From a virus (lineage: Duplodnaviria; Heunggongvirae; Uroviricota; Caudoviricetes): DNA of 24,201 bases. The stretch's first letter is position 1. Every line of letters begins with the position of its first letter. Both the position numbers and the translations under genes were made by a program. Location of the stretch: the IMG/VR virus record IMGVR_UViG_2778261666_000010, one strand, 5' to 3'. Below the pieces are notes generated by a model. The model saw only the letters and a program-made list of their open reading frames with translations, did no database searches and had not been told where the DNA came from. Of this stretch, positions 6,161 to 24,201 are shown piece by piece.

Positions 6161-6654
6161 CAGCACAACTCCGCAAAGATTCGCGGGCGGCACAGAATGT
6201 CAGAGATGGCCCAGCTCACATCGCGCCACAAATCCGATGTCTGTATATCCAGTGCGTCCGCCCGGCGGTCGCCCTTGTCCGTTGTGTCCGCATCGCGGTA
6301 ACGCTCCAGAATCAGGGCGCGTGTGGCGGTATAAACAGCATTGCGCCAGTGCCAGAGATTGACGCTTTCTCCGTTAATTACGGGTGCCGGAACATCGGCC
6401 AGCGTCTGATGGCCAGCCGCCTGCTGTTCCTGCTGCCATGCTTCCAGCTCGCGGGTAACGTGTGCCACGGCCCCGGTGGCGGTATGCAGCAGGCGGGAGG
6501 TGGTCACACGGCCCGGCAGTCGTACCGCCAGACGCAGCTCGCGCAGCACAATATCCGGCCAGAATGCACCTGCTGAAATGCGAGTGTCGCCATCATCGGT
6601 ATCGGTGATGTCGTCCTCTGCGGGTCTTGGTTCAGTTCTGGCAACCATACTCAT
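6160..6654 (-). CDS. L: Head completion/stabilisation protein (P2 gpL-like)
   Basis: Position after M as in P2. Track start 6663 is GTG only 1 nt from the SD; ATG 6654 has AGGAG at good spacing. C-terminal ...WRDVSWA... resembles P2 L. Confidence 0.8.
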   Translation of the reverse strand: MSMVARTEPRPAEDDITDTDDGDTRISAGAFWPDIVLRELRLAVRLPGRVTTSRLLHTATGAVAHVTRELEAWQQEQQAAGHQTLADVPAPVINGESVNLWHWRNAVYTATRALILERYRDADTTDKGDRRADALDIQTSDLWRDVSWAISDILCRPRIFAELC

Positions 6655-9669: not shown

Positions 9670-11421
9670 ATGATTCAGGACGCTTTTGTGCGCCAGCGTG
9701 CGCGACAACTTTACTGGCAGGGTTATCCGCCCGCTGAAATATCACGTCTGATGGGAATAAACCCGAACACGATTTATGCGTGGAAAAAACGCGACCAGTG
9801 GGATGAAACGCCACCCGTGCAGCGTGTCACGCAGTCCATCGATGCGCGCCTCATCCAGCTTACTGAAAAACAGAATAAAACAGGCGGTGACTTTAAGGAA
9901 ATAGACCTGCTGACCCGGCAGCTTAAAAAACTGCATGATGGCCAGCCGGATGCGACGGCCACAGGAAAGAAAGGCCGGGCGAAAAAACTCAAAAATCATT
10001 TCACGCCGGAACAGATTGCCGCACTGCGGGAAAAAATCATCAGCAGGCTGGAGTGGCATCAGCGGGGCTGGTTTGACTCCCTGACCCTTTGCAGGGAAGC
10101 CGGGATACGTAACAGGATGATCCTGAAATCCCGACAGATTGGGGCGACCTGGTATTTTGCACAGGAAGCACTGCTGATGGCGCTGCGTGACGATGTGGCG
10201 CAACCTTACCAGCGTAACCAGATTTTTTTGTCTGCGTCGCGTCGTCAGGCGTTCCAGTTTAAAAGCATTATTCAGAAGGCCGCGGCTGAAGTTGATGTGG
10301 AGCTGAAAGGGGGCGATAAAATCATCCTCTCCAACGGCGCAGAGCTGCATTTTCTCGGCACTTCTGCTGCGTCGGCACAGTCCTATACGGGCAATTTTTA
10401 TTTTGATGAATTTTTCTGGGTCAGTCGCTTTGCTGAACTGCGCAAGGTGGCTGGCGCTATGGCAACCCTCAGCGGACTGCGGCGCACCTACTTCTCCACG
10501 CCATCCACCGAAACGCACGAGGCATACGCCTACTGGAACGGCGACCGCTGGAATGAGAAAAAGGCCTCGCATAAACGCCAGCGTTTTTCTGTGGACTGGA
10601 AAACGCTGCATAACGGGCTTATCTGCCCTGACCGGACGTGGCGGCAAATTGTCACGCTGGAAGATGTGGTTAATCACGGCTGGAAACACACTGATATCGA
10701 CGAAATTCGTGATGAAAACACCGAAGACGAGTTCCTCAATCTCTATATGTGTGAGTTTGTCCGCGAAGGGGAATCGGCATTTAACCTGAATATCCTGATT
10801 GGCTGCGGTGTTGACGGATACGACGACTGGAAAGACTGGAAACCTTTTGCTCCCCGCCCGATGGGGAATCGTCCGGTATGGATTGGGTATGACGCAAACG
10901 GCAGTAGTGGCAACGGCGACAGCGGCGCTGTGTCCGTGGTGGTTCCTCCGGCTGTTCCTGGTGGCCGTTTTCGAACGGTGGAGACGCGACGCGTTCAGGG
11001 GCTGGAGTTTGAAGAACAGGCCAGAGTCATTGAAGAGTTCACGTATCGCTACAACGTGGAACACATCGGCATTGATGTGACGGGCGGGAACGGGGAGGCT
11101 GTTTATCAGATAGTGAAACGGTTTTTCCCTGCTGCTATTCCGTACACCTTCACGCTGTCATCAAAACGGTCGCTGGTACTGAAAATGCTGCAAATAATGC
11201 GTGCCGGGCGGTGGGAATACGATCGCGCCGAACGCGAGCTGGTCGCGGCCTTTAACGCCGTGCGTAAGGTGAAAACACCGGGCGGCTTTATCACTTACGA
11301 AACGGACCGCGCGAGGGGGATCAGCCACGGCGACCTTGCGTGGGCAACCATGCTTGCTGTCATTAACGAACCGATTGGCGGCGAAGGAGAAAACGAGCGT
11401 TTCACGGTTATGGAGTTCTGA
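9670..11421 (+). CDS. P: Terminase large (ATPase) subunit (P2 gpP-like)
   Basis: 583 aa; ATG 9670 preceded by GGGGGAG; N-terminal HTH-like segment (YWQGYPPAEISRLMGINPNTIYAWKKRDQWDE); stop overlaps the portal start. Confidence 0.9.
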   Translation: MIQDAFVRQRARQLYWQGYPPAEISRLMGINPNTIYAWKKRDQWDETPPVQRVTQSIDARLIQLTEKQNKTGGDFKEIDLLTRQLKKLHDGQPDATATGKKGRAKKLKNHFTPEQIAALREKIISRLEWHQRGWFDSLTLCREAGIRNRMILKSRQIGATWYFAQEALLMALRDDVAQPYQRNQIFLSASRRQAFQFKSIIQKAAAEVDVELKGGDKIILSNGAELHFLGTSAASAQSYTGNFYFDEFFWVSRFAELRKVAGAMATLSGLRRTYFSTPSTETHEAYAYWNGDRWNEKKASHKRQRFSVDWKTLHNGLICPDRTWRQIVTLEDVVNHGWKHTDIDEIRDENTEDEFLNLYMCEFVREGESAFNLNILIGCGVDGYDDWKDWKPFAPRPMGNRPVWIGYDANGSSGNGDSGAVSVVVPPAVPGGRFRTVETRRVQGLEFEEQARVIEEFTYRYNVEHIGIDVTGGNGEAVYQIVKRFFPAAIPYTFTLSSKRSLVLKMLQIMRAGRWEYDRAERELVAAFNAVRKVKTPGGFITYETDRARGISHGDLAWATMLAVINEPIGGEGENERFTVMEF

Positions 11422-12467
11422 TGAGCAGAAAAAACAAAAAAGTGCGCATGAGTTCACGCATTGATCTCGCTGATGCGCTCAGGAAAGAATCATCGCTCAG
11501 TGCATTCACATTTGATGGTCCTTATCGCCTGACCGGGCATGACCTGCTGGACAATATGTACTGTGCTGATAACGGGCGGTGGTATGAAACCCCGGTGGAC
11601 TGGTACGGTCTGGCAAGAGCAGCCCGGCAAACGTCCTGGCATCAGTCTGCGCTTTACTTTAAGCGTAATGTATTGCTCGGTTGCTATATTCCGCACCCGC
11701 TGCTTTCCCGGCAGGATTTCTCGGCGCTGGCGCTGGACTGGTTTGTGTTCGGTAACGCATTCCTTGAGCTTCGAAGCAATATGCTCGGCGAACCACTTAA
11801 ATTACGGCACACCCTGGCGAAATACATGCGACGCGGAAGCGATCTTGAATCATGGTGGTATGTGCAGGATGGCAAGGACGCGTTTCAGTTTCGCCCTGGC
11901 AAAGTGTGCCACCTGATGAATCCTGACATTAACCAGGAAATCTACGGCATGCCGGAATATCTCGGCGCATTACTCTCGGCCAGCCTGTCTCATTCGGCGG
12001 ACATGTTCAGAAAACTGTATTACGACAACGGCTCCCACGCCGGGTGCATCATCTACATCGGTGCAGCGCAGGTAAACCGCGAAAGCATGGACTCCCTGAA
12101 GGAAACGCTACAGGGTGCGCGTGGTGGTGGTGCATTTAAAAACGTGCTCATTCATGCGCCCAACGGGGGCAAAGAGGGGGTGCAAATTTTGCCGTTCCAG
12201 CAGATCACCGCAAAGGATGAGTTCATGAATGTTAAGGCGGCATCCCGTGATGATGTGCTGGCTGCGCACCGCGTTCCGCCGCAACTGATGGGGGCGATGC
12301 CGGGCGAAAAAAGTGCGTTTGGCGATGTGGAGAAGGCAGCGCGGGTTTACGCAATTAACGAGCTGATGCCCGTCATGGAGGCTATGAAGCACATCAATGA
12401 CTGGCTTGGCGAAGAGGTGATCCGTTTTAACTCTTATGCTCTTCTTGATGAAAAAACAGCCCCGTGA
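11421..12467 (+). CDS. Q: Portal protein (P2 gpQ-like)
   Basis: 348 aa, close to the 344 aa I recall for P2 Q; immediately downstream of the terminase, as in P2. Confidence 0.9.
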   Translation: MSRKNKKVRMSSRIDLADALRKESSLSAFTFDGPYRLTGHDLLDNMYCADNGRWYETPVDWYGLARAARQTSWHQSALYFKRNVLLGCYIPHPLLSRQDFSALALDWFVFGNAFLELRSNMLGEPLKLRHTLAKYMRRGSDLESWWYVQDGKDAFQFRPGKVCHLMNPDINQEIYGMPEYLGALLSASLSHSADMFRKLYYDNGSHAGCIIYIGAAQVNRESMDSLKETLQGARGGGAFKNVLIHAPNGGKEGVQILPFQQITAKDEFMNVKAASRDDVLAAHRVPPQLMGAMPGEKSAFGDVEKAARVYAINELMPVMEAMKHINDWLGEEVIRFNSYALLDEKTAP

Positions 12468-12483
12468 TGGGGCTGTCCTTTTT
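12456..12483. terminator. Bidirectional intrinsic terminator shared by convergent portal (plus) and orf174a (minus)
   Basis: 8-bp stem ACAGCCCC/GGGGCTGT (12456-12463 / 12469-12476) with loop GTGAT. Followed by a T-run on the plus strand (CCTTTTTA) and preceded by an A-run, giving a U-tract on the minus strand too. The portal stop lies in the loop; the orf174a stop lies in the T-run. Confidence 0.65.
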
Positions 12484-13006
12484 ACCAGAGTTGAACCATT
12501 TTCTGGGTGCCGTCAGGCTTGAGATTATCAATTTCAGAGAGAACGTAATATTGAATGGCTTCACAAACGGTGGTGTAGGGTGAATTACCTTCTTTAAGTG
12601 GCACGATATTATTATTAACGCGAACCTGTATTTCATCGTTATACATTGCGATCGAAACAGGAGTGTGCACGAACGCGACTTCGCCAGGTGTGTCGTCAAC
12701 CACCGTTTCAATACTAAAAGTCAGTTTTCGCTCATCATTGCTGCCCCGTGCTTTGGGGGTAGCGGCAGGGATCTGGGATAAAGGCATTCTGCGAAATCCT
12801 TCGGCTGCTTCCAGTCCGCATGAAACGTAATGCTGGCGATTACCGTCGCTATCTGTCCAGGTCTGTGATGGCAGCTCCAGCGAGATTTCATAAGCATCAA
12901 CAATGCCCTGGGCAAGGCGTACAAGCGGGGTCAGATCTTCATTGCGGCGAAAGCTCTCCTTTACCTGCTCCCGTTTTTCTCTTAACTGCTTGTAATTAAT
13001 GACCAT
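12482..13006 (-). CDS. Hypothetical protein (174 aa), accessory gene next to the portal
   Basis: Track start 13045 is GTG; ATG 13006 has a perfect GGAGG 7 nt upstream (MVINYKQLREKREQ...). Ends at the shared terminator. No motif I recognise. Visibly more AT-rich than the flanking structural genes. Confidence 0.6.
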   Translation of the reverse strand: MVINYKQLREKREQVKESFRRNEDLTPLVRLAQGIVDAYEISLELPSQTWTDSDGNRQHYVSCGLEAAEGFRRMPLSQIPAATPKARGSNDERKLTFSIETVVDDTPGEVAFVHTPVSIAMYNDEIQVRVNNNIVPLKEGNSPYTTVCEAIQYYVLSEIDNLKPDGTQKMVQLW

Positions 13007-13108
13007 AAAACAGCCTCCATTGATTTCTTTGCTCGTATTTTGCACTTATGAAGTATGGTCGGCAAGGTGCCGTATCGCTGACGCGCTTCGCTTGTCTGCT
13101 GCTTCGCC

Positions 13109-13131
13109 GGGGCATAAAAAATTTATGCCCC
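13109..13131. other. Perfect 10-bp-arm palindrome/hairpin
   Basis: GGGGCATAAA-AAA-TTTATGCCCC, about 100 bp upstream of the orf174a start; no flanking U-tract on either strand. Confidence 0.4.
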
Positions 13132-13505
13132 GACTCTCCAGCTCCTGTATCAATCAGATAATTTCACGACGCCTTCCAGCTTATTGTCATCATCGACGGT
13201 CAGGCTCTTACGCAATCCCGCCGTGCTGACTGCATGTTCTCGTCGCCTCAGTGCGATTTTGACGGCCTTATCAGTCACCCCATCAAATCAAAAGCCCTCA
13301 CGTATTTTTCACGCTCAGCGTGAGAAAGACAGCCATTCTGTTGTGTCGCTGCGACATCGTTCAGGGAATGCTATTTACCCCCTGAAACGCGGGCTGTTCC
13401 CCCGTCACCTGCGCGCAGAAAAAACGCGTTTTTTTGTGCACGCACGGATCCTTGACGGATCCAGCCGCCACGGGGGCCGGAAGGGCAAAAAGTCGTTCAA
13501 AAAAA

Positions 13506-13532
13506 TTGTGCAAATTTGTGCACTATTGTGCA
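13506..13532. repeat. Three TTGTGCA direct repeats at exact 10-bp phasing
   Basis: aTTGTGCAaatTTGTGCActaTTGTGCAgc, copies starting at 13506, 13516 and 13526 in non-coding DNA; helical-phase iterons suggest a protein-binding array. Confidence 0.5.
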
Positions 13533-13572
13533 GCAGGGCGATGCGCGATTATCGCCTTGGTTTGAGAGGAAA

Positions 13573-14097
13573 TCAGGTGTTCTTTTTACCTTCTGTCAGT
13601 GGGCATAACCATCCACTATTTACATCACTTAGCTGATGCGTTCTTTCCTCGTGCTTCTCCTGCCACAATGCTTTTCCGCCAGCCTTTATGATGGCTCTTT
13701 CAACATCCCGCTCGTATCGCAAGGGCTGAAATACGTTATTAATGAAATATTCGCTTATGTCCGGAAGCAATACTGCAAAATTATTGGTTTGTTGCGCCGT
13801 TCGGCTATGCAGCAAAGCGGCATACTTTAATGCGTCCTGTGCTTTCTGGAATTTCAGTGCATGGTCAGTGGCGATTTTTTCCAGTTCAGCGATCCTGTTG
13901 TCTTTGGTTTCCAGCTCTTCCAGCAGCTCGGCGATAATGTCCATTTCCTGATGACGGATTTGACGCTTAAACGCCGCCACTGCTTCGCTACAATCCTGCT
14001 CAGCATTTGGGTTATCCGTGATGGCCTCATACCACGCCAGCGTCGATTGATAGTTTTGTGCTGCCTCACGTAATGCCTGATAGTTGATTTCGCTCAT
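13573..14097 (-). CDS. Hypothetical protein (174 aa), predicted alpha-helical/coiled-coil, downstream of parR
   Basis: ATG 14097 with AAGGAG upstream; a hairpin (14135-14152, CAGGGCGAACTCGCCCTG) separates it from parR; no recognisable motif. Confidence 0.6.
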   Translation of the reverse strand: MSEINYQALREAAQNYQSTLAWYEAITDNPNAEQDCSEAVAAFKRQIRHQEMDIIAELLEELETKDNRIAELEKIATDHALKFQKAQDALKYAALLHSRTAQQTNNFAVLLPDISEYFINNVFQPLRYERDVERAIIKAGGKALWQEKHEERTHQLSDVNSGWLCPLTEGKKNT

Positions 14098-14160
14098 TAT
14101 GTCGTTCTCCTTGTTTATGTTCTGAGGTGGAGAGCAGGGCGAACTCGCCCTGATGTTGTG

Positions 14161-14472
14161 TTATTCAGGAAATAACGCCCTGATATTTCTGGCCATCTGA
14201 CTGGTTATCTGTGCGGTTGGTACTGGCTGTGACTCGGGGCGTTCTGTCCTGGTTTGTGTCACTGATAACGTCTCATCGTCAGCCCATGCAGCCAGTCGGT
14301 AAGCCTCTGCCGGATTCATTTTCAGAAGTGCCAGCCCGGCCAGAAAAGCCACGCGTTGGCCGCTTTTGCGAGCTTCTGGTGTAAGGCTGTCCAGCCAGGC
14401 GCATGCTTCACCTTCGTTCTTGACGGCGGCGGGTTTCAGATAGAAACTTATCCGTCTGGTTGGTGTCGTCAT
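14161..14472 (-). CDS. parR: ParR-like centromere-binding adaptor (partition protein)
   Basis: Start moved to ATG 14472 (MTTPTRRISFYLKPAAVKNEGEACAWLDSLTPEARKSGQRVAFLAGLALLKMNP...), with AAGGAG upstream and overlapping the parM stop. Resembles the N-terminal ribbon-helix-helix region of plasmid R1 ParR (...RTIAFKLNPD...LDSIP...RAALTAGLALY...) from memory. The track's 45-residue N-terminal extension overlaps parM. Confidence 0.65.
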   Translation of the reverse strand: MTTPTRRISFYLKPAAVKNEGEACAWLDSLTPEARKSGQRVAFLAGLALLKMNPAEAYRLAAWADDETLSVTQTRTERPESQPVPTAQITSQMARNIRALFPE

Positions 14473-14476
14473 TGGT

Positions 14477-15436
14477 TTACTCCTTGTCCATTGCGTACAG
14501 CCCATTAACCAGAGCAAACTGTGGCACCCCGTCCGCGATGAAAGTCGCATTAACTCCGCAGGCTTCGCGGATAGCGGGTGCCACAATCTCCGCCCCGCCA
14601 CCGACAACCATCACCCGCCCGTAACCCGAAAAACCCGCCAGCGCGCGGATCACGCGTTGTTTCAGTGTTTCTTCCTTTTCACGAATAACCGCCATCAGGC
14701 TGGCGTAATGCGCGTCATTGTGGATGTGCTGGCGCAGCCAGGCTTCATCATGGCGATGTTCGATAATGGTATTGGCGATGTGGTGACTGGTACGCATACC
14801 GTTAGTGGCCATCACCGACAGTACGGCATCGGCCATCAGGGAAACGCCTACGTGTGGATCGCAAAACACCTGGCTGATACCTGCCAGTTGTCCCTGAACC
14901 TTTGCCACATCCAGCGTGGTTCCGCCCAAATCCACAATCAGCAGGGATTCAAACGGACTCATGTCAGCCAGTGCCTTAAAGCCAGCCGGAATGGATTCAG
15001 GCATAACCCGTACATTACGGATAGTGAATGCCTTACCGTTCTGGTACTCCACCGGGCGCATGACGTTCGCTTTTTTGCGGTTGATGTTGGCCATGTCCGG
15101 CTGTGCGTTTGTGTCGAAATACTCGCTCAGTGGCAGGGTGACAACCACATCCACTTCCTGTGGTGTGATGCCTGATTTGACCAGCGCGTGATGAATGGCA
15201 ATTACATTCACATCGCTGTACTGGTATTGCGTGTCGGTCGTCTGGACAAAGCGATCGCTGACCGGATCAAAACCATAGCGCACGCCATCAAGCATGTAGT
15301 TCGCGGGCTGCATGCCACCGAACGGCGCAGACCATTCCGATTTGAAGCTGTTCGGGCTGATGGCGTTGCGGCGTTCGCCGTTCTCAGTCCATGCCAGCTT
15401 GATGTTGGTGGAGCCGTCGTCGATACAAATTTTCAT
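14477..15436 (-). CDS. parM: ParM/StbA-like actin-type segregation ATPase
   Basis: 319 aa, collinear with plasmid R1 ParM as I recall it (MKICIDDGSTNIKLAW..ISPNSFK..YSDVNV..HHAL..RKKAN..VMPESIPAG..DLGGTTLD..GVSL..GGGAEIV..LVNG), including phosphate-1, phosphate-2 and adenosine motifs of the actin fold. Confidence 0.85.
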   Translation of the reverse strand: MKICIDDGSTNIKLAWTENGERRNAISPNSFKSEWSAPFGGMQPANYMLDGVRYGFDPVSDRFVQTTDTQYQYSDVNVIAIHHALVKSGITPQEVDVVVTLPLSEYFDTNAQPDMANINRKKANVMRPVEYQNGKAFTIRNVRVMPESIPAGFKALADMSPFESLLIVDLGGTTLDVAKVQGQLAGISQVFCDPHVGVSLMADAVLSVMATNGMRTSHHIANTIIEHRHDEAWLRQHIHNDAHYASLMAVIREKEETLKQRVIRALAGFSGYGRVMVVGGGAEIVAPAIREACGVNATFIADGVPQFALVNGLYAMDKE

Positions 15437-15468
15437 GTCGATTTTCCTTATATTGATTAATTAATCGG

Positions 15469-15580
15469 TTACGGGATTTTTAAATCCCGCTTTTGCCTGT
15501 TTTGTGCGCGCTTCATATTTCGCGGCGCTTTTTTTGCTCATTTACGGGATTTGTGAATCCCGTTTCTGTCTGTTTTTTGT
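15469..15580. repeat. Two ~38-bp direct repeats, each with an internal hairpin and T-rich tail, straddling the gene A stop and the parM upstream region
   Basis: Copy A 15469-15506 (TTACGGGATTTTTAAATCCCGCTTTTGCCTGTTTTGTG) and copy B 15542-15580 (TTACGGGATTTGTGAATCCCGTTTCTGTCTGTTTTTTGT); copy B lies inside the last ~23 codons of gene A. Confidence 0.6.
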
Positions 15581-18335
15581 TCCCACGGGTCAGGCCACCC
15601 CGCAGCAGGTCTGCTTTGCGGTGGGCGCGTTCAGTGGTTTCACTGATTCTCTGTGCGTGCTCTGCGTCACGGATGGCGCGCAGCATGTCAGAAAGCACGG
15701 TAACGGGTGTCTTCATGGTGTTCTGGTCTTGCTGAAGTGTGGATGCCAGGCGTGCGGCGGCTTCGGGGTCTGATGCCCCTAGCTGTTCCAGATAGCTGGC
15801 GACCGGGTTATGGCGGATCTCCGTGCTGCTTACGCCGTGATTACGGCTCAGGCGCTGCCAGAGCTGCGTGATTCGGCTGTCCGGTCGGGTATCTGGTTTG
15901 CGTACAATTTCAAATCCCTGCGGTGCAATGATGCTGCCGTCAACGTACAGACTGCCGCCCCGTAACAGGTGCAGCATCTGTTGTTCACCGATATGCAGGC
16001 CGAGAGATTCGGCAGACTCCCGCCATTCTTTAGCGAGTAACTCGTGGTTATCAGGCAAAGGTCGCGGCTGTTTGCGGCTCTGTGTCCAGTTCTGCATTTC
16101 ATCGCTGCTGTTTTTTGCCTGTTTGTCACGAAGCGAACGCATCAGCGCCCGGCGTTCGTGCCGTTTCAGTGAGCGCATCCATTCATTTACTTCAACGCCG
16201 TCAGGAAGCTGCGGCCACGGTGCTGGCCGTTCTTCCGGCTGTTCTGTTCCGTTGTTGTTCGTTTCCTGTACACGGGGACAGTTATTGCCACGAGTCCAAG
16301 GGGCGGCAGGGCCGCCCTGAAGGTCAAAACCATTTTCGCGGGCGCTGTCTTCCGCTTCCGGTTTACGCCTTACCAGCTTCCAGTTATCCGGGTGCGTGCA
16401 CACGCGGGAAGACTCCCCGATGAGCGGCGACCAGATCCCGTAAATCTGTACACTCTGCTCGCCGTAATCGTTCAGTTCATCTGCGAGGTCGTAGGCGGTG
16501 CGAATCAGGTAGTCTTTACGTGGAACAAGTACGCCGCCCTGTTTTTCAATGTAGGAGGCAAAACACCCGGCATCGGCGGCAGCGAGTACCGCATCCATTG
16601 CGTCATCCTTCAGCCGTTGCGGGCCTTCCGGGTTGCGTGCCATCTGGCTGGCAAGGCGGCGCAGTTCACGCCACACCTGACGGGAGGGGATGCCAAAGAA
16701 CTGGAACTGGCGGACCCGATGAAGGCGCGCCCAGCCGATGGCGCGCTCCACGCTCTCGGCCATTGATTTTCCGGTTTCGTGGTCAACGCGTGGTTTGCCC
16801 GTTTTCGGGTCGATTCCATCCACGGCGCGGCTGTCCAGGTTTTTTCCGATGTAGGTGGCGATGTAGCTGGTTGGCGTGCCTTTGGAGCCGTCGACGTACT
16901 CCACCTTAAAGCGCGGAGTAATATCATTGCCCAGCTCGTGGCGGTCTTCCTGAATGGCAATATCGCGGGTGATGGCCACGATGCTGTCGATTTCTTCTGG
17001 ATGAGCAAAGACCATCATATGCCAGTGCACGGTGCCGTCATGGTGAGGCTCCACCGTGCGGATGCCATACCAGCGCAGGCCGTCGCGGTTCAGTTTCTTG
17101 CGGACCGCCGCAAAAAACGTGTTAACCAGGTAATCGCTGGAGTCGCGCATGGTGGCCCCGTTCCATTTGGGATTCGGATGACCGTTCTCTGTTGTGGCGT
17201 GGTATTTTGACGGGCAGGTGACAGTCAGAAACACCGCTTTGTCGCCACGGGCTTCGGCTAGAAGTTCCAGCCCCTTCATGGTGGCCATCATTTCTGCCTT
17301 ACGGTGAACCGGGTTACTTACTCCCGCGTAATACACTGTCTCAAGATCAATCGTGAAGCCGTCTTCGTTTTCCAGTTCGAAGCTCTTCAGGAAGTCGCGG
17401 GTTTTCTCGCGCTGTGCGCGAAACTCGCTTAACGCGTCCTGGCTCAGATAGGGTGATGTTTTTCTGGAAACCAGACAGGCGGCACGGAGCTGTTCTTCCC
17501 GCCACTCGCAACGTAAAAGCCACAGTTTGTGTTTCCACCATTCCGCACAGGTCAGGCGAAGGATGGCACCCGGCAGCAGCTCCGTATTCAGTGCGTTCTT
17601 CCGGTCTTTGTCCGTTCTCAGTGCTTCGTAATGCGGCGGCATGGTGTGCAGATGTAACGCCATGCGGGCCAGCATCTGATACGCCTTCAGCGCAATTTTC
17701 ATGGTCAGCTCGCCATCGGTCGCGCCAAAGTTATCGCAGAGTGTTTCGAAAGTGCTGCTGAACATCGCCGCCGTCATGGTGGCCAGCGTCTGTATCTGGT
17801 GTTTGTTGAGCTGCGGCAGGTAAAGCAAATCGTCCAGGCGTTCGCGTCCGGCAAGGGAGCAATAACACGGTGTCAGCCAGCGTCCGTCAGTGCGATCCAG
17901 ACGTTCGAATATTTTGCGCAGGGTTCCGCGTGCATAGCGTTCCGCCTGCCAGCTCTTTTTGCCTTTCCGGCGATCGGCTTCCTGTTTTTTGCGCAGGAAG
18001 GAGAGGTGGCGAATAAGCGGATCGCGCAGATAGGACGGCAGCAGGCGGAGCGAGGCCATGGCTTCATCCACCGCGCCGCGTGCCTGTTTTCTGGCGTCTC
18101 CTGTCAGTGTGATGGTTTTGTCCTGTTTTTCCTGTGCGTCCAGGCTTTTATTAATCAGGTTGCCCAGCGGCGTGGCGGAGAACGCCGCATCAGCCATTTC
18201 CTGGCGGCGCTCGTTCTCTGCCCGGTAGGCATCCAGCCAGGAGGAAAGCGCGGATTCAGGAGCGGGGATCCCCGTTCCTTCACGCCCCACTGCGTGGCGC
18301 GGTTGTTGCCAGTCCCTGATGTACTCTGCCGTCAT
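15513..18335 (-). CDS. A: Replication initiation endonuclease (P2 gpA-like, rolling-circle HUH family)
   Basis: 940 aa, ATG 18335; metal-binding motif EPHHDGTVHWHMMVF and downstream tyrosine region (...TSYIATYIGKN...). Longer than the ~761 aa I recall for P2 A. Confidence 0.85.
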   Translation of the reverse strand: MTAEYIRDWQQPRHAVGREGTGIPAPESALSSWLDAYRAENERRQEMADAAFSATPLGNLINKSLDAQEKQDKTITLTGDARKQARGAVDEAMASLRLLPSYLRDPLIRHLSFLRKKQEADRRKGKKSWQAERYARGTLRKIFERLDRTDGRWLTPCYCSLAGRERLDDLLYLPQLNKHQIQTLATMTAAMFSSTFETLCDNFGATDGELTMKIALKAYQMLARMALHLHTMPPHYEALRTDKDRKNALNTELLPGAILRLTCAEWWKHKLWLLRCEWREEQLRAACLVSRKTSPYLSQDALSEFRAQREKTRDFLKSFELENEDGFTIDLETVYYAGVSNPVHRKAEMMATMKGLELLAEARGDKAVFLTVTCPSKYHATTENGHPNPKWNGATMRDSSDYLVNTFFAAVRKKLNRDGLRWYGIRTVEPHHDGTVHWHMMVFAHPEEIDSIVAITRDIAIQEDRHELGNDITPRFKVEYVDGSKGTPTSYIATYIGKNLDSRAVDGIDPKTGKPRVDHETGKSMAESVERAIGWARLHRVRQFQFFGIPSRQVWRELRRLASQMARNPEGPQRLKDDAMDAVLAAADAGCFASYIEKQGGVLVPRKDYLIRTAYDLADELNDYGEQSVQIYGIWSPLIGESSRVCTHPDNWKLVRRKPEAEDSARENGFDLQGGPAAPWTRGNNCPRVQETNNNGTEQPEERPAPWPQLPDGVEVNEWMRSLKRHERRALMRSLRDKQAKNSSDEMQNWTQSRKQPRPLPDNHELLAKEWRESAESLGLHIGEQQMLHLLRGGSLYVDGSIIAPQGFEIVRKPDTRPDSRITQLWQRLSRNHGVSSTEIRHNPVASYLEQLGASDPEAAARLASTLQQDQNTMKTPVTVLSDMLRAIRDAEHAQRISETTERAHRKADLLRGGLTRGNKKQTETGFTNPVNEQKKRREI

Positions 18336-18341
18336 AGTGAT

Positions 18342-18707
18342 TTACTTCGTCATGCCATTCAGGGTGTCGCGGCAGACGGCAGCCAGCCGCTGAATTTCCA
18401 GCACGGTGTCTTCTGTGTCGGCATGGCGATGTGTGATGCGGATGCTGTCGGCAATCACATCGACGATTGCAGAGGATGGGCGCTGGTAAATGCCAATAAC
18501 GGACGGGGTGCCGCCTTCAATGCGGTAAAGCCTGTAATTTCCCTCGTGGCTGTCAATCATGTAGCGACCATCAATAACAATCTTTCCGTCAGCGAGCTGC
18601 GGTACAGGCAGGGATTTCAGGTACATGTCATAACGTTCACGCACGCGAACGGCAAGATCACGCTCTGTGTTGAGCAGGTATTCAAGAAAGTCGTTGGCGA
18701 GAATCAT
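18342..18707 (-). CDS. Hypothetical early protein (121 aa)
   Basis: ATG 18707 with AGAGGA upstream; ends 7 nt before gene A; position of the small P2 orfs preceding A. Confidence 0.55.
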   Translation of the reverse strand: MILANDFLEYLLNTERDLAVRVRERYDMYLKSLPVPQLADGKIVIDGRYMIDSHEGNYRLYRIEGGTPSVIGIYQRPSSAIVDVIADSIRITHRHADTEDTVLEIQRLAAVCRDTLNGMTK

Positions 18708-18779
18708 TGCGGCAATCCTCTTGTTACAGATGTGCGAAGGCCTCCCGCCGCAAGGTGCAGGAAAGGCCCGGAACAGGAA

Positions 18780-19010
18780 TTAATGGAGTTTGTTTTGCTG
18801 CTCGATGAGCTGCTGAAGCTCGCGCAGATCATCCGCCAGATAGCTAAATACTGCGGCGGAGTAGGCGTTTGACAGCACGTGGCTGTGCTCATGTGACATG
18901 TTGATGAACATGATACGAGCGACGCGTGATGCGCGGTAAAGTCTGCGGTTGATTTCAGTCTGGATGTGACGACGCGCAGCGTATGCGCGCTGTTGTTTGC
19001 GGTTTGCCAT
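18780..19010 (-). CDS. Hypothetical early protein (76 aa)
   Basis: ATG 19010 with AGAGG upstream; first gene after the 320-bp structured non-coding region. Confidence 0.5.
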   Translation of the reverse strand: MANRKQQRAYAARRHIQTEINRRLYRASRVARIMFINMSHEHSHVLSNAYSAAVFSYLADDLRELQQLIEQQNKLH

Positions 19011-19188
19011 GGTGTGGCCTCTTTGCTAGTAAGTTTTAAAAACTCACCATCCAGAGGTGGAAAACTCGGGGTGGTGAGACGTACAGGGTTTCCACAACCG
19101 GCTAGCAAAGAACCCGGCCCGACCGAAGTCGGCCCCATACGCCCCACCATAATTCGTGTGCGAAAAAGACGTGGCGATACGGTACGCA

Positions 19189-19210
19189 CAAAAAAACCGC
19201 TGGCGCGGTT
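19189..19210 (-). terminator. Candidate intrinsic terminator (minus strand) inside the early region
   Basis: Minus-strand RNA would read AACCGC-GCCA-GCGGUU followed by UUUUUU; short GC stem, moderate strength. Confidence 0.4.
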
Positions 19211-19330
19211 GTGCGCTTTGCTAGTCAGCGGGGTGGAAATCCCGGCACCCGTTTTATGAGGTGCAGCGGAAATGTAACCTGACTGATTGCGGCATGGCAA
19301 GCGGTTTTTTTGTGTGTGCATGATGATTAC

Positions 19331-21954: not shown

Positions 21955-22296
21955 CTACCCGATAAGCCAAATAACAAACGCTATGAGCACCGCGCCAATA
22001 GTGGTCGGGAAAAGACCTCTGGTATAGGCGGCGAGGTAATGAACGTTGAGAACAATAAAGCGCTCTTTTTGTCCTGTTAGCTTGTTAAGCAGATAAATCG
22101 CTATTACACCCACTTCCAGGAATACAAGGTTCAGAATGGCGCTGATGATATTGCTGGTTATTTTTGTGTGTTTAGTTGCCTTCGCTGCTTTTGAGTCGCT
22201 CCAGCTTTGAACTTCTGCCTGTATAAACTCGCTTACCGTTAATGGTCTGGCAGTCTTCTTTATTAGCTGGAAAGAACTTTCTTTTCTGGCGGTCAT
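21955..22296 (-). CDS. Possible overprinted two-helix membrane protein (low confidence)
   Basis: Alternative frame overlapping the 3' end of the Cox-like gene; the C-terminal 70 aa are strongly hydrophobic (ITSNIISAILNLVFLEVGVIAIYLL... LFPTTIGAVLIAFVIWLIG); the only in-frame ATG is at 22296, with a weak SD. Confidence 0.25.
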   Translation of the reverse strand: MTARKESSFQLIKKTARPLTVSEFIQAEVQSWSDSKAAKATKHTKITSNIISAILNLVFLEVGVIAIYLLNKLTGQKERFIVLNVHYLAAYTRGLFPTTIGAVLIAFVIWLIG

Positions 22297-22693
22297 ACGT
22301 CCAGTAACTTTTCCAGTTGTGCCATTCTGGTGGCTCAAGTTCCGGTAGCTCGTCAGCCAGTGCGTCCCACTCTTTGGCGTTAAACCACCATACTCCGTCT
22401 GAGTTTTCATCTTCCGGGTTTGTGCGCGTCTTGTGTCCCGGCATTTGACCGCGATGAATGGCTACGCGCAGTGCAGATTTTGTTAGCCCAATATATGCCG
22501 CGCCTTTTTCCAGAGAGCAAAGCCCGGCGATCGGACCATCCAGCCGTAAAGTCGCTCCTTTTTTGTAGGAACGCTTTTTCTTGTTTTCTTCGTGTTCGTC
22601 GTCGTTGGCGGCATCAATGGATCCGCTGAGTGCGTCACTTTCCTGAAGTGGTTGGTGGTCAGATAACTCTTTATCGGCAATGAAGTCCCGCAT
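22172..22693 (-). CDS. Cox/Apl/Cro-position HTH regulator, first gene of the early operon (173 aa)
   Basis: ATG 22693 with AAGAGGA upstream; divergent from the repressor; acidic N-terminus then an HTH-like segment (AAYIGLTKSALRVAIHRGQMPG) and a Trp-rich region. Much longer than P2 Cox (91 aa from memory). Confidence 0.6.
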   Translation of the reverse strand: MRDFIADKELSDHQPLQESDALSGSIDAANDDEHEENKKKRSYKKGATLRLDGPIAGLCSLEKGAAYIGLTKSALRVAIHRGQMPGHKTRTNPEDENSDGVWWFNAKEWDALADELPELEPPEWHNWKSYWTYDRQKRKFFPANKEDCQTINGKRVYTGRSSKLERLKSSEGN

Positions 22694-22752
22694 TTGTTAT
22701 CCTCTTGCGTTGGTGCGCTTGTCGCGCCTTGTGATGGTTTGTTTTGGCTTGT

Positions 22753-22808
22753 AAAGATAATCAAACGGTTATCTTTGTGCGAGAGGTTAATACTCAAATG
22801 GTTATCTT
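22753..22808. promoter_or_regulatory. Candidate operator elements of the immunity switch
   Basis: Perfect inverted repeat AAAGATAA-N8-TTATCTTT (22753-22776), plus a 9-bp direct repeat GGTTATCTT at 22767 and 22800 (33 bp apart), the second overlapping the repressor start codon. Confidence 0.45.
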
Positions 22809-23139
22809 GTCAATAGACTATGCAAAAAAGTTACGTCAGATACGTAAGGCGGAAGGGTTAACACAAAAGCAGTTTGCGGATATTACTGGGTTGTCTTTGG
22901 CAACCATAAGGAATTACGAATCGGGGCAAAAGAACGCTAGAGCAAAAATCGTTGAGGCGGTTCTGCAAGTCGATCGCTTTGAAAAATACATGCTGTGGCT
23001 AATAAAAGATAAGACGCTACCTGTCGCCGGGCAGATTGCTCCGGCTCTCTCTCTTGATGGATCTATTCAGTCGGAGGGCGATCAGGTTTCAATCGGTATT
23101 ACCCAAAAATCACCCCGATCAGGCCGCAATGTTGGCTGA
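22798..23139 (+). CDS. Immunity repressor (P2 C / lambda CI-type, HTH_XRE)
   Basis: Start placed at ATG 22798 (MVILSIDYAKKLRQIRKAEGLTQKQFADITGLSLATIRNYESGQ...), a classic XRE HTH; upstream of and co-oriented with int, as in P2 C-int. The track's earlier start 22744 remains possible. Confidence 0.7.
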   Translation: MVILSIDYAKKLRQIRKAEGLTQKQFADITGLSLATIRNYESGQKNARAKIVEAVLQVDRFEKYMLWLIKDKTLPVAGQIAPALSLDGSIQSEGDQVSIGITQKSPRSGRNVG

Positions 23140-23208
23140 CTCTACACATTGAGCGAATTACATATCGCAAGGAGTGTTTAGTTAATTTATCCGTTGGAGG
23201 GGCTAATC

Positions 23209-24201
23209 ATGTCGATTAAGCAACTCAAAGACGGACGTTATCAGGTCGATGTCAGACCGCAGGGGGCGGAAGGAAAGCGGATTCGAAAAATCTTTGCCCT
23301 GAAATCAAAGGCTCAGGAGTTTGAGAAGTATGTGTTACAGAACTTTCATGACAAGCCATGGCAGGCTAAGCCAGCTGATCAGCGGCGATTATCAGAGCTG
23401 CTTGACGCGTGGTGGATGCTTGATGGGCGTAATCAGGCTTACGGGGATAGCTACAGGGTTAGGCTAGGGAAGGTTGTTCGTGAAATGGGAGATCCTCGCG
23501 CCAGTCAGATGACGCGAAAATTTATGCTTGAATATCGGTCAGAGAAATTACAGGCCGGATTAATGCCGTCCAGTATTAATCGTGACTTATGCGTACTGTC
23601 TACCATGTTCACGGTGCTGATTGAAGCTGAGGTCTTTCACAACGCGAACCCTGTACGCGGTATACGAAAACTGAAAGTTCAGAACACAGAGATGGCCTTT
23701 CTTTCTGATGATGAGATTGAACGGCTTCTTGAGCGACTGGAGGGTGATGCGCGTCGTGTTGCCATTCTGTGTCTTTCTACTGGTGCCCGATGGAGTGAAG
23801 CATCGGAACTACGTGGAGAGCATATCGTTGGCAACCGGGTGACGTTCTTTAACACCAAAAACGGAAAATCCCGTTCGGTTCCTGTGGCGGATTCGGTCGT
23901 GCCTCTGATTAAAACCCGTCGAACGGGGTTATTGTATCAGGTTGATTATCTGAAGTTCCGGGAGATTCTTCAGGAGGTGAAACCGGATTTGCCGAAGGGG
24001 CAGGCTACGCATGTCATGCGTCATACGTTTGCCACACACTTTATGATGAATGGCGGAAATATTGTTACGTTGCAACGAATCCTGGGGCACGCAACGATTC
24101 AGCAAACAATGACGTACGCTCATTTTTCGCCGGACTTTTTACAGGACGCGATCAACTTTAATCCGCTGGCTGAAAGTGTCCATAAACTGTCCATCGATTA
24201 G
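23209..24201 (+). CDS. int: Tyrosine integrase (P2 Int-like)
   Basis: ATG 23209 preceded by GGAGG; C-terminal catalytic region ...HVMRHTFATHFMMNGGNIVTLQRILGHATIQQTMTYAHF... with the R/H/Y signature; stop is the last codon of the window, so attL/attR should lie just beyond it. Confidence 0.9.
   Translation: MSIKQLKDGRYQVDVRPQGAEGKRIRKIFALKSKAQEFEKYVLQNFHDKPWQAKPADQRRLSELLDAWWMLDGRNQAYGDSYRVRLGKVVREMGDPRASQMTRKFMLEYRSEKLQAGLMPSSINRDLCVLSTMFTVLIEAEVFHNANPVRGIRKLKVQNTEMAFLSDDEIERLLERLEGDARRVAILCLSTGARWSEASELRGEHIVGNRVTFFNTKNGKSRSVPVADSVVPLIKTRRTGLLYQVDYLKFREILQEVKPDLPKGQATHVMRHTFATHFMMNGGNIVTLQRILGHATIQQTMTYAHFSPDFLQDAINFNPLAESVHKLSID

Follow-up and report, generated by a model that had tools for sequence, protein, structure and literature searches.

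On the minus strand of a 24,201-nucleotide viral DNA sequence (IMG/VR record IMGVR_UViG_2778261666_000010, hereafter the window) lies an intact R1-type type II partition cassette (ParMRC), which consists of the gene parM for an actin-like ATPase, the gene parR for its adaptor protein, and two repeats upstream of parM that represent a candidate centromere (parC). To judge from gene content and similarity, the window is just one more, 97%-identical member of the P88-like P2-type prophages (Xuanwuvirus, Peduoviridae), among which the cassette is a conserved core module. Our best explanation, to which we assign a probability of roughly 55%, is that the cassette segregates or positions the excised circular phage genome that is replicated by the rolling-circle endonuclease gpA. 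Note that the presence of the cassette is already known. Both genes are labeled as partition proteins in RefSeq and PHROGs, and a screen of phages for plasmid functions singled out P88, noted its partition genes, listed it as a putative phage-plasmid, and raised the possibility that it has both an episomal and an integrative state (Pfeifer et al. 2021, PMC7969092). The cassette goes unmentioned in the paper on P88 (PMC5285337), and the paper on phiSM lists the gene merely as a "fitness" factor (PMC6456863). The additions made here are modest, namely a candidate parC, the finding that ParR is a mosaic, evidence that purifying selection is strong, strict linkage to a long form of gpA, and figures for prevalence and location.

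The initial annotation of the window had recognized a ParM-type protein by inspection and named the absence of similarity to ParM/StbA as grounds for refutation. Database searches revealed strong similarity instead. The parM gene (14477..15436, minus strand) encodes a 319-amino acid actin-fold ATPase whose residues 1–157 match the Pfam domain StbA_N (E = 5.6e-82) and whose residues 159–316 match the ParM C-terminal domain (E = 1.3e-68), and the sequence of the R1 ParM crystal structure (PDB 1mwk) aligns to residues 2–316 (E = 2.2e-92). The motifs DDGSTNIK (phosphate-1), PESIPAG (catalytic), DLGGTTLD (phosphate-2), and GGGAE (adenosine) are the same in this protein and in R1 ParM, and the nucleotide-binding and catalytic motifs are invariant across the ParM proteins of the window, a Hafnia prophage, the phage-plasmid D6, and the plasmid pCTX-M3. 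Overall identity to plasmid-type ParM proteins is approximately 50% (52% for pCTX-M3 and 48% for D6).

The 103-amino acid product of parR (14161..14472, minus strand), which had been proposed to be ParR-like, indeed belongs to a partition family. It matches Pfam PF10784 (Plasmid_stab_B, E = 5.2e-25) and covers positions 1–103 of the 103-position PHROG profile phrog_2515, "partition protein." The proposed overlap of parR with parM was not found at the conserved start codon, however. The parM TAA stop codon occupies positions 14479–14477 and the parR ATG begins at 14472, which leaves a gap of 4 nt; only the mechanically longest parR open reading frame (ORF), beginning with a TTG at 14607, overlaps parM. 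A Shine-Dalgarno sequence for parR, AAGGAG, can be read within the last codons of parM (14480..14485, minus strand) and is the same in all seven loci compared. The position of this sequence and the short gap suggest that translation of the two genes is coupled.

An alignment of 28 ParR homologues revealed four distinct parts. The N-terminal strand, RRISFYLKP, has invariant residues R6, R7, I8, F10, Y11, L12, K13, and P14. The middle of the protein comprises conserved helices followed by a hypervariable linker at approximately residues 68–95. The C-terminal tail, NIxx(L/F)FP, is invariant and can be aligned to the C-terminal ends of pCTX-M3 ParR and D6 StbB. R1 ParR reportedly docks on ParM through its C-terminus, a result associated with Salje and Löwe and with Gayathri et al. 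An AlphaFold2 monomer model based on an alignment of 28 sequences has a mean predicted local distance difference test (pLDDT) score of 54.8, with helices at residues 20–61 joined through a disordered linker to a helix at the C-terminus (residues 87–100); this low-confidence model leaves the N-terminal strand unmodeled. Comparison of ParR with PDB sequences yielded no match even at E ≤ 1, and tblastn with ParR yielded matches only in P88-like elements and none in genuine plasmids.

At least four allele groups of parR are separated by dS values (synonymous divergence) of more than 1.2, while the adjoining parM genes differ by dS values of only 0.05–0.1. This discrepancy indicates that recombination breakpoints fall inside parR, and the gene is thus a recombination mosaic. 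Chimeric forms exist as well (for example, P0027 and P0033). The N-terminal strand, which is predicted to read DNA, is the same in all alleles.

Substitution patterns reveal strong purifying selection on parM. Comparison of parM with eleven relatives gave dN/dS ratios (dN, nonsynonymous divergence) of 0.04–0.16. The most distant relative is the Hafnia prophage, which has the same gpA-parM-parR-portal order; between its parM and the E. coli-type parM of the window, dS is 0.63, dN is 0.025, and dN/dS is 0.04, with an amino acid identity of 95%. For parR, dN/dS is 0.2–0.3 overall and lower over the first 60 codons. The parM ORF is intact at 319 codons in 76 of 76 IMG/VR loci, a count biased by the choice of these loci through ParM similarity, and parR is intact in all 70 loci assessed (103–104 codons, 41 distinct sequences). 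The dN/dS of 0.04 and the uniformly intact ORFs contradict the suggestion in the initial annotation that the cassette might be a remnant of plasmid-prophage recombination. In the E. coli O157 strain 180-PT54, a degraded P2-like prophage with an insertion sequence (IS) retains intact gpA, parM, and parR genes, with parMR beside IS3. Another degraded prophage with an IS (GCA_008711365.1, 2697–6312) has a fragmented gpA gene and an internal double frameshift in parR, and its parM is still 319 codons long.

The region from 12400 to 15600 is 93–97% identical to the corresponding regions of P88, Xuanwuvirus P884B11, Citrobacter phage phiSM, PhiR44_2, and others, and the order terminase, portal, parR, parM, gpA is the same in these P88-like relatives. 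The cassette itself is 93–97% identical in 14 phage records. Relative to P88, gpA is 95.5% identical and ParM is 99.4% identical. Both P88 and phiSM are inducible, plaque-forming phages. When 50,697 phage records were searched with ParM by tblastn, 14 Xuanwuvirus-type records and D6 were found, and no others. When viral contigs were scanned with an alignment to find more distant ParM proteins, only the close relatives already known came back. A ParM search of genome contigs returned only three close relatives. One of these, a 226-kb contig labeled Vagococcus sp. (NZ_JBQPOM010000071.1), carries a 97%-identical P88-like parMR, probably through contamination or mislabeling. Among complete E. coli genomes, the cassette is present in 1307 of 5426, and 1453 of its 1455 copies are chromosomal. 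It is a fixed core feature of a very common phage lineage. The view that such a system is unusual for an integrating P2-type phage thus holds across phage records in general, but within this lineage the cassette is both core and common. Because ParM is only about 50% identical to plasmid ParM proteins and ParR was not detected in genuine plasmids, the cassette is taken to be an old resident of the phage lineage rather than a recent capture.

The cassette is tightly linked to a particular form of gpA. The three genes gpA, parM, and parR follow one another in this order on the minus strand, with parM directly after gpA. The gpA gene (15513..18335, minus strand; Pfam Phage_GPA, E = 2.9e-129) encodes a rolling-circle replication endonuclease of 940 amino acids, of which approximately residues 797–940 (about 145 residues; window 15513–15944) form a C-terminal extension with no Pfam domain. 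Exactly the same 14 phage records that carry ParM have a gpA that is at least 85% identical to that of the window. The next-best gpA proteins, from Fels-2, SEN8, and Klebsiella P2-like phages, are 42–43% identical and align to residues 9–796 only, which suggests that, among phage records, the extension is specific to the lineage that bears ParMR.

Upstream of parM, repeat and pattern searches identified two 38-nt direct repeats that are 84% identical, lie 73 bp apart, and are each built around CGGGATT-N4-AATCCCG. The proximal unit (15469..15506) contains the perfect palindrome CGGGATT-TTTA-AATCCCG at 15472–15489 and lies inside the 76-nt spacer between gpA and parM, with its GGGATT core starting 52 nt 5′ of the parM ATG. 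The distal unit (15542..15579), with the palindrome CGGGATT-TGTG-AATCCCG at 15545–15562, lies inside the last codons of gpA and hence in the coding sequence of the C-terminal extension. These units are placed as parC is in R1, and we propose them as a candidate parC to which ParR is predicted to bind.

The repeat units are retained in E. coli, Salmonella, E. albertii, and Hafnia. In the Hafnia prophage, both units are still found at −52 and −125 relative to the parM ATG, and the flanking sequences, the spacer between the repeats, and the gpA C-terminus have diverged. Because the Hafnia gpA stop codon falls within the distal palindrome, conservation of the repeats is not due to coding constraint on gpA. 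Both palindromes are present in all 77 IMG/VR ParM loci that have sufficient upstream sequence, and 92 of the 93 IMG/VR loci with paired palindromes have parM 36–56 nt away (36 nt in 90 of them). The lone exception, L088 (IMGVR_UViG_2681813421_000004, approximately 6270–6510), is a natural parM deletion that retains gpA, both 38-nt repeats, and the first 20 or so parM codons, with the remainder of parM gone.

Several variants of the palindrome arms occur among the IMG/VR loci (GGGACT, AATCCT, and others), and each is a single change that is not compensated in the opposite arm. We considered whether the palindromes might form hairpins, as an RNA or DNA structure, a single-strand origin, or a terminator. 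This reading was not adopted because the arm changes are uncompensated and because the palindromes are not followed by T-runs on the sense strand.

A consensus scan predicted no sigma-70-like promoter between gpA and parM, and weak −35/−10 candidates between the two repeats were seen by eye only. Nor did a terminator scan detect any T-run-bearing terminator on the sense strand in the gpA-parM interval or just past parR. The first downstream sense-strand site resembling an intrinsic terminator (GTGCACAAATTTGCAC followed by T7; 13508..13523, minus strand) comes after the Ead/Ea22-like gene that follows parR, and a gpA-parM-parR-ead transcript probably ends there (13523..13508). On the simplest reading of these scans, parMR would form the tail of an early operon that contains gpA. 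In P2, the early operon, with its gpA counterpart, is silenced by repression in lysogens.

We also assessed whether the phage occurs as an episome. The PLSDB record NZ_CP148288.1, submitted as a circular plasmid from an E. coli isolate of a cat, is a 34,461-bp circle whose sequence is an entire P88-like genome, including the genes for integrase, repressor, and Cox as well as gpA and parMR. A query across its junction between the integrase and cargo regions was never intact in the 5426 E. coli genomes, and the chromosomal matches to this query all break at query position 343. Therefore, the circle is joined at the attP crossover. The same project also includes a human isolate (NZ_CP148378.1) whose chromosome carries an integrated phage with 100% identity to this circle. 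The record shows that the excised circle can reach an abundance sufficient for assembly, but it does not establish stable plasmid carriage. Thus, the typical carrier of a type II partition system, an autonomous low-copy replicon, is not what was observed, given the almost exclusively chromosomal location of the cassette and the presence of integrase, repressor, and Cox. Nor was the extrachromosomal lysogeny that characterizes phage-plasmids, since these phages are nearly always integrated and PLSDB holds a single circular record.

Because nearly all copies are chromosomal, the module is not needed for inheritance of the integrated form. We propose instead that its substrate would be the extrachromosomal circle that exists before integration and after excision. 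Under this model, parM and parR would be transcribed together with gpA at the end of the early (lytic) operon, such that both proteins would be made upon infection or induction and would be absent from the repressed integrated prophage. Dimers of ParR would bind the two palindrome-bearing 38-nt repeats upstream of parM, and the conserved C-terminal tail of ParR would catch the ends of ATP-ParM filaments, whose growth would drive ParR-bound circular phage genomes apart. Rolling-circle replication by gpA would yield monomeric circles as cargo. The benefit could be that copies stay spread and are inherited while the host cell still divides, which is the same logic as that of the SrpMRC system of SXT/R391 elements.

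Several points weigh against this interpretation. The perfect association between the repeats and parM largely reflects shared ancestry, in that all informative relatives other than Hafnia are at least 88% identical. The candidate parC has just two palindrome-cored units, compared with the ten 11-bp direct iterons of R1 parC. The fold model of ParR is of low confidence (pLDDT 55) and does not confirm a ribbon-helix-helix fold. The argument for co-transcription draws on simple consensus scans, and a weak promoter between the repeats is possible. Moreover, a lytic burst may allow little cell division, such that a benefit from segregation is not obvious. Finally, the literature we searched contained no experiments on the function of the cassette.

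The closest competitor to partition of the excised circle is a role in replication, wherein ParM and ParR would organize or move replicating circles, or stimulate the HUH endonuclease gpA, and thereby aid rolling-circle replication and packaging. We judge this possible but considerably less probable. It would account for the position of the cassette directly after gpA with no intervening terminator, and for the strict link to a variant form of gpA, in which a unique C-terminal extension is encoded by sequence that includes the distal repeat. AlpAC plays such a role for the Corynebacterium glutamicum prophage CGP3. Furthermore, the ParM and ParR proteins of R1 bind to TraI, a relaxase of the HUH type, and stimulate it (PMC4949242), which makes a functional link to gpA conceivable. 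However, there is no evidence for interaction of either ParM or ParR with gpA, and other P2-like phages replicate without ParMR. This explanation also overlaps with the one we prefer, and sequence alone cannot separate them. A broader proposal, that ParMRC is coupled to gpA either through a facultative, partition-supported episomal phase or through direct organization or stimulation of gpA replication by ParM/ParR via the C-terminal extension, is one that we put forward only tentatively.

A true dual lifestyle, in which P88-like phages could be maintained over many generations as plasmid prophages of low copy number with ParMRC as their partition system, seems unlikely. The classification of P88 as a putative phage-plasmid (PMC7969092), the circular record joined at the attP position, and the integration of a phage identical to that circle in another strain are in agreement with this idea, but the lone circular assembly could be spontaneously induced phage DNA. 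The predominance of chromosomal copies, the intact integrase, repressor, and Cox genes, and the presence of rolling-circle gpA with no theta-type plasmid replicon seen all speak against it, as does the apparent location of gpA and parMR in an operon that, by inference from P2 biology, should be silenced by the repressor.

Even less likely is that lysogens express the cassette against competitors, with ParR and/or ParM interfering, through incompatibility or exclusion, with the partition of plasmids or phage-plasmids that enter the cell or of superinfecting P88-like genomes. The cassette does adjoin variable cargo between parR and the portal gene, it is intact even in the degraded O157 prophage, and the divergent ParR alleles beside near-identical parM genes are as expected of specificity switching. 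Nevertheless, no promoter was predicted, and a PADLOC analysis of ParM, ParR, and two cargo ORFs gave no defense-system match beyond chance-level scores. ParR was found by tblastn only in P88-like elements and not in genuine plasmids, and neither its N-terminal strand nor the palindromes vary across alleles, so there is no sign of new DNA specificities. Least probable of all, in our estimate, is that the cassette is a nonfunctional, hitchhiking relic of an old plasmid-phage recombination event. An integrated prophage has no need of partition, L088 lacks most of parM, and parR is frameshifted in one of the degraded prophages. Against these observations stand the dN/dS of 0.04 at a dS of 0.63, the intact parM (76/76) and parR (70/70) ORFs, the conserved catalytic motifs, and the gene order and upstream repeats shared with Hafnia.

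The remainder of the window is a P2-type temperate phage genome whose orientation is reversed relative to the standard P2 map, and the proposal that ParM and ParR reside in a P2-like prophage with an integrase is borne out by its integrase, repressor, Cox, and P2-type structural genes. Genes for baseplate, tail, capsid (Phage_cap_P2), scaffold (GPO), and small terminase proteins extend up to 9548 on the minus strand, followed by those for the large terminase (9670–11421) and portal (11421–12467) on the plus strand. Beyond gpA are genes for a Cox-like protein (22172–22693, minus strand), a helix-turn-helix repressor (22744–23139), and a tyrosine integrase (23194–24201), all three of which are intact.

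The interval between the portal gene and parR (12468–14160) is variable cargo, with other genes there in relatives. In the window it holds an ORF matching phrog_5091 (12482..13045, minus strand), to which the PHROG match assigns no function, a stretch poor in ORFs (13046–13572), and the Ead/Ea22-like ORF next to parR (13573..14097, minus strand). The end of the Xuanwuvirus P884B11 record maps near window position 13488, and cos is probably there. No Rfam match was obtained for 12400–15700 at E ≤ 1, and no tRNAs were found in the window. Elsewhere, Rfam matches at gathering level identified a C4 antisense RNA (RF01695, 78.8 bits; 19154..19067, minus strand) and the Hfq-binding small RNA isrK (RF01394, 63.8 bits; 19264..19190, minus strand), both inside the 5′ part of an Ash-family ORF (19321..18704). 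This pair corresponds to a P1/P7-type antisense immunity or antirepressor element within the P2-like early region.

Roughly one complete E. coli genome in four, with O157:H7 among them, thus carries an intact, strongly conserved actin-type cassette on the chromosome, within a prophage that can do without it while integrated. If it does partition or position the excised circle, the finding would bear on how sharp the boundary is between integrating phages and phage-plasmids. If coupling to gpA were to prove correct, machinery for plasmid segregation would play an active part in the life cycle of an integrating phage in about a quarter of E. coli strains.

The cassette shares the order repeats, parM, parR with R1 parMRC and with its counterpart on pCTX-M3 (IncL/M). 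Its ParM aligns with R1 ParM from end to end with identical nucleotide-binding motifs, and its ParR shares the Pfam family and the C-terminal tail motif. On pCTX-M3 (locus L008, 2150–2252), two direct repeats of approximately 30 nt likewise precede parM with a start-to-start distance of 73 bp, but their sequences are unrelated to those of the prophage repeats, and the pCTX-M3 and prophage ParR proteins are only about 21% identical. Unlike these plasmid systems, the prophage cassette is found directly after gpA in an integrating P2-type phage rather than on a low-copy plasmid, and it differs from R1 in having two palindrome-bearing units and no predicted promoter of its own. Its nearest relatives are the cassettes of P88, P884B11, phiSM, PhiR44_2, 520873, and 503458, which have 93–97% nucleotide identity, 96–99% ParM identity, and the same gpA-parM-parR order with the portal gene beyond; they differ from the window only in the cargo that separates parR from the portal gene and in a few ParR residues. 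Among the remaining phage records, only that of D6 contains a related ParM; there, StbA is followed by the StbB-type ParR and is annotated as "similar to phage P88 StbA." However, D6 is a 91-kb P1-like plasmid prophage that requires partition, its upstream repeats are unrelated (TCTCAAA-N5-CTCA, three copies), and its ParR is approximately 30–35% identical.

Two further systems can be likened to the cassette as functional analogues, a comparison drawn from the literature and not from sequence. The AlpAC/alpS system of CGP3 resides in an integrated prophage that encodes an actin-like filament former together with an adaptor protein, co-transcribed with it, that binds DNA upstream of their operon. 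Induction of this adaptor comes early upon excision, and its target is circular phage DNA (PMC4446434, PMC5539076), which the system links to actin-like filaments and which needs it for efficient replication (PMC4446434). The host of CGP3 belongs to another phylum, and the reported role of AlpAC is efficient viral replication rather than plasmid-like segregation. If our preferred interpretation holds, the P88-like phages would provide the second example, after CGP3, of a prophage that uses its own actin. SrpMRC of the SXT/R391 integrative and conjugative elements (ICEs) is also a ParM-type system on a normally integrated element. It is expressed only with excision and replication functions, its SrpR protein binds upstream of srpM, and it stabilizes a transient circle that replicates by the rolling-circle mechanism (PMC4489591). 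SrpM and SrpR are distant from R1 ParMR, whereas the prophage cassette is close to R1; SrpMRC is carried by ICEs in the int operon rather than by a phage after gpA, and its function has been demonstrated experimentally. Should the prophage cassette indeed partition or position the excised circle, phages would have in it a counterpart to this ICE system.

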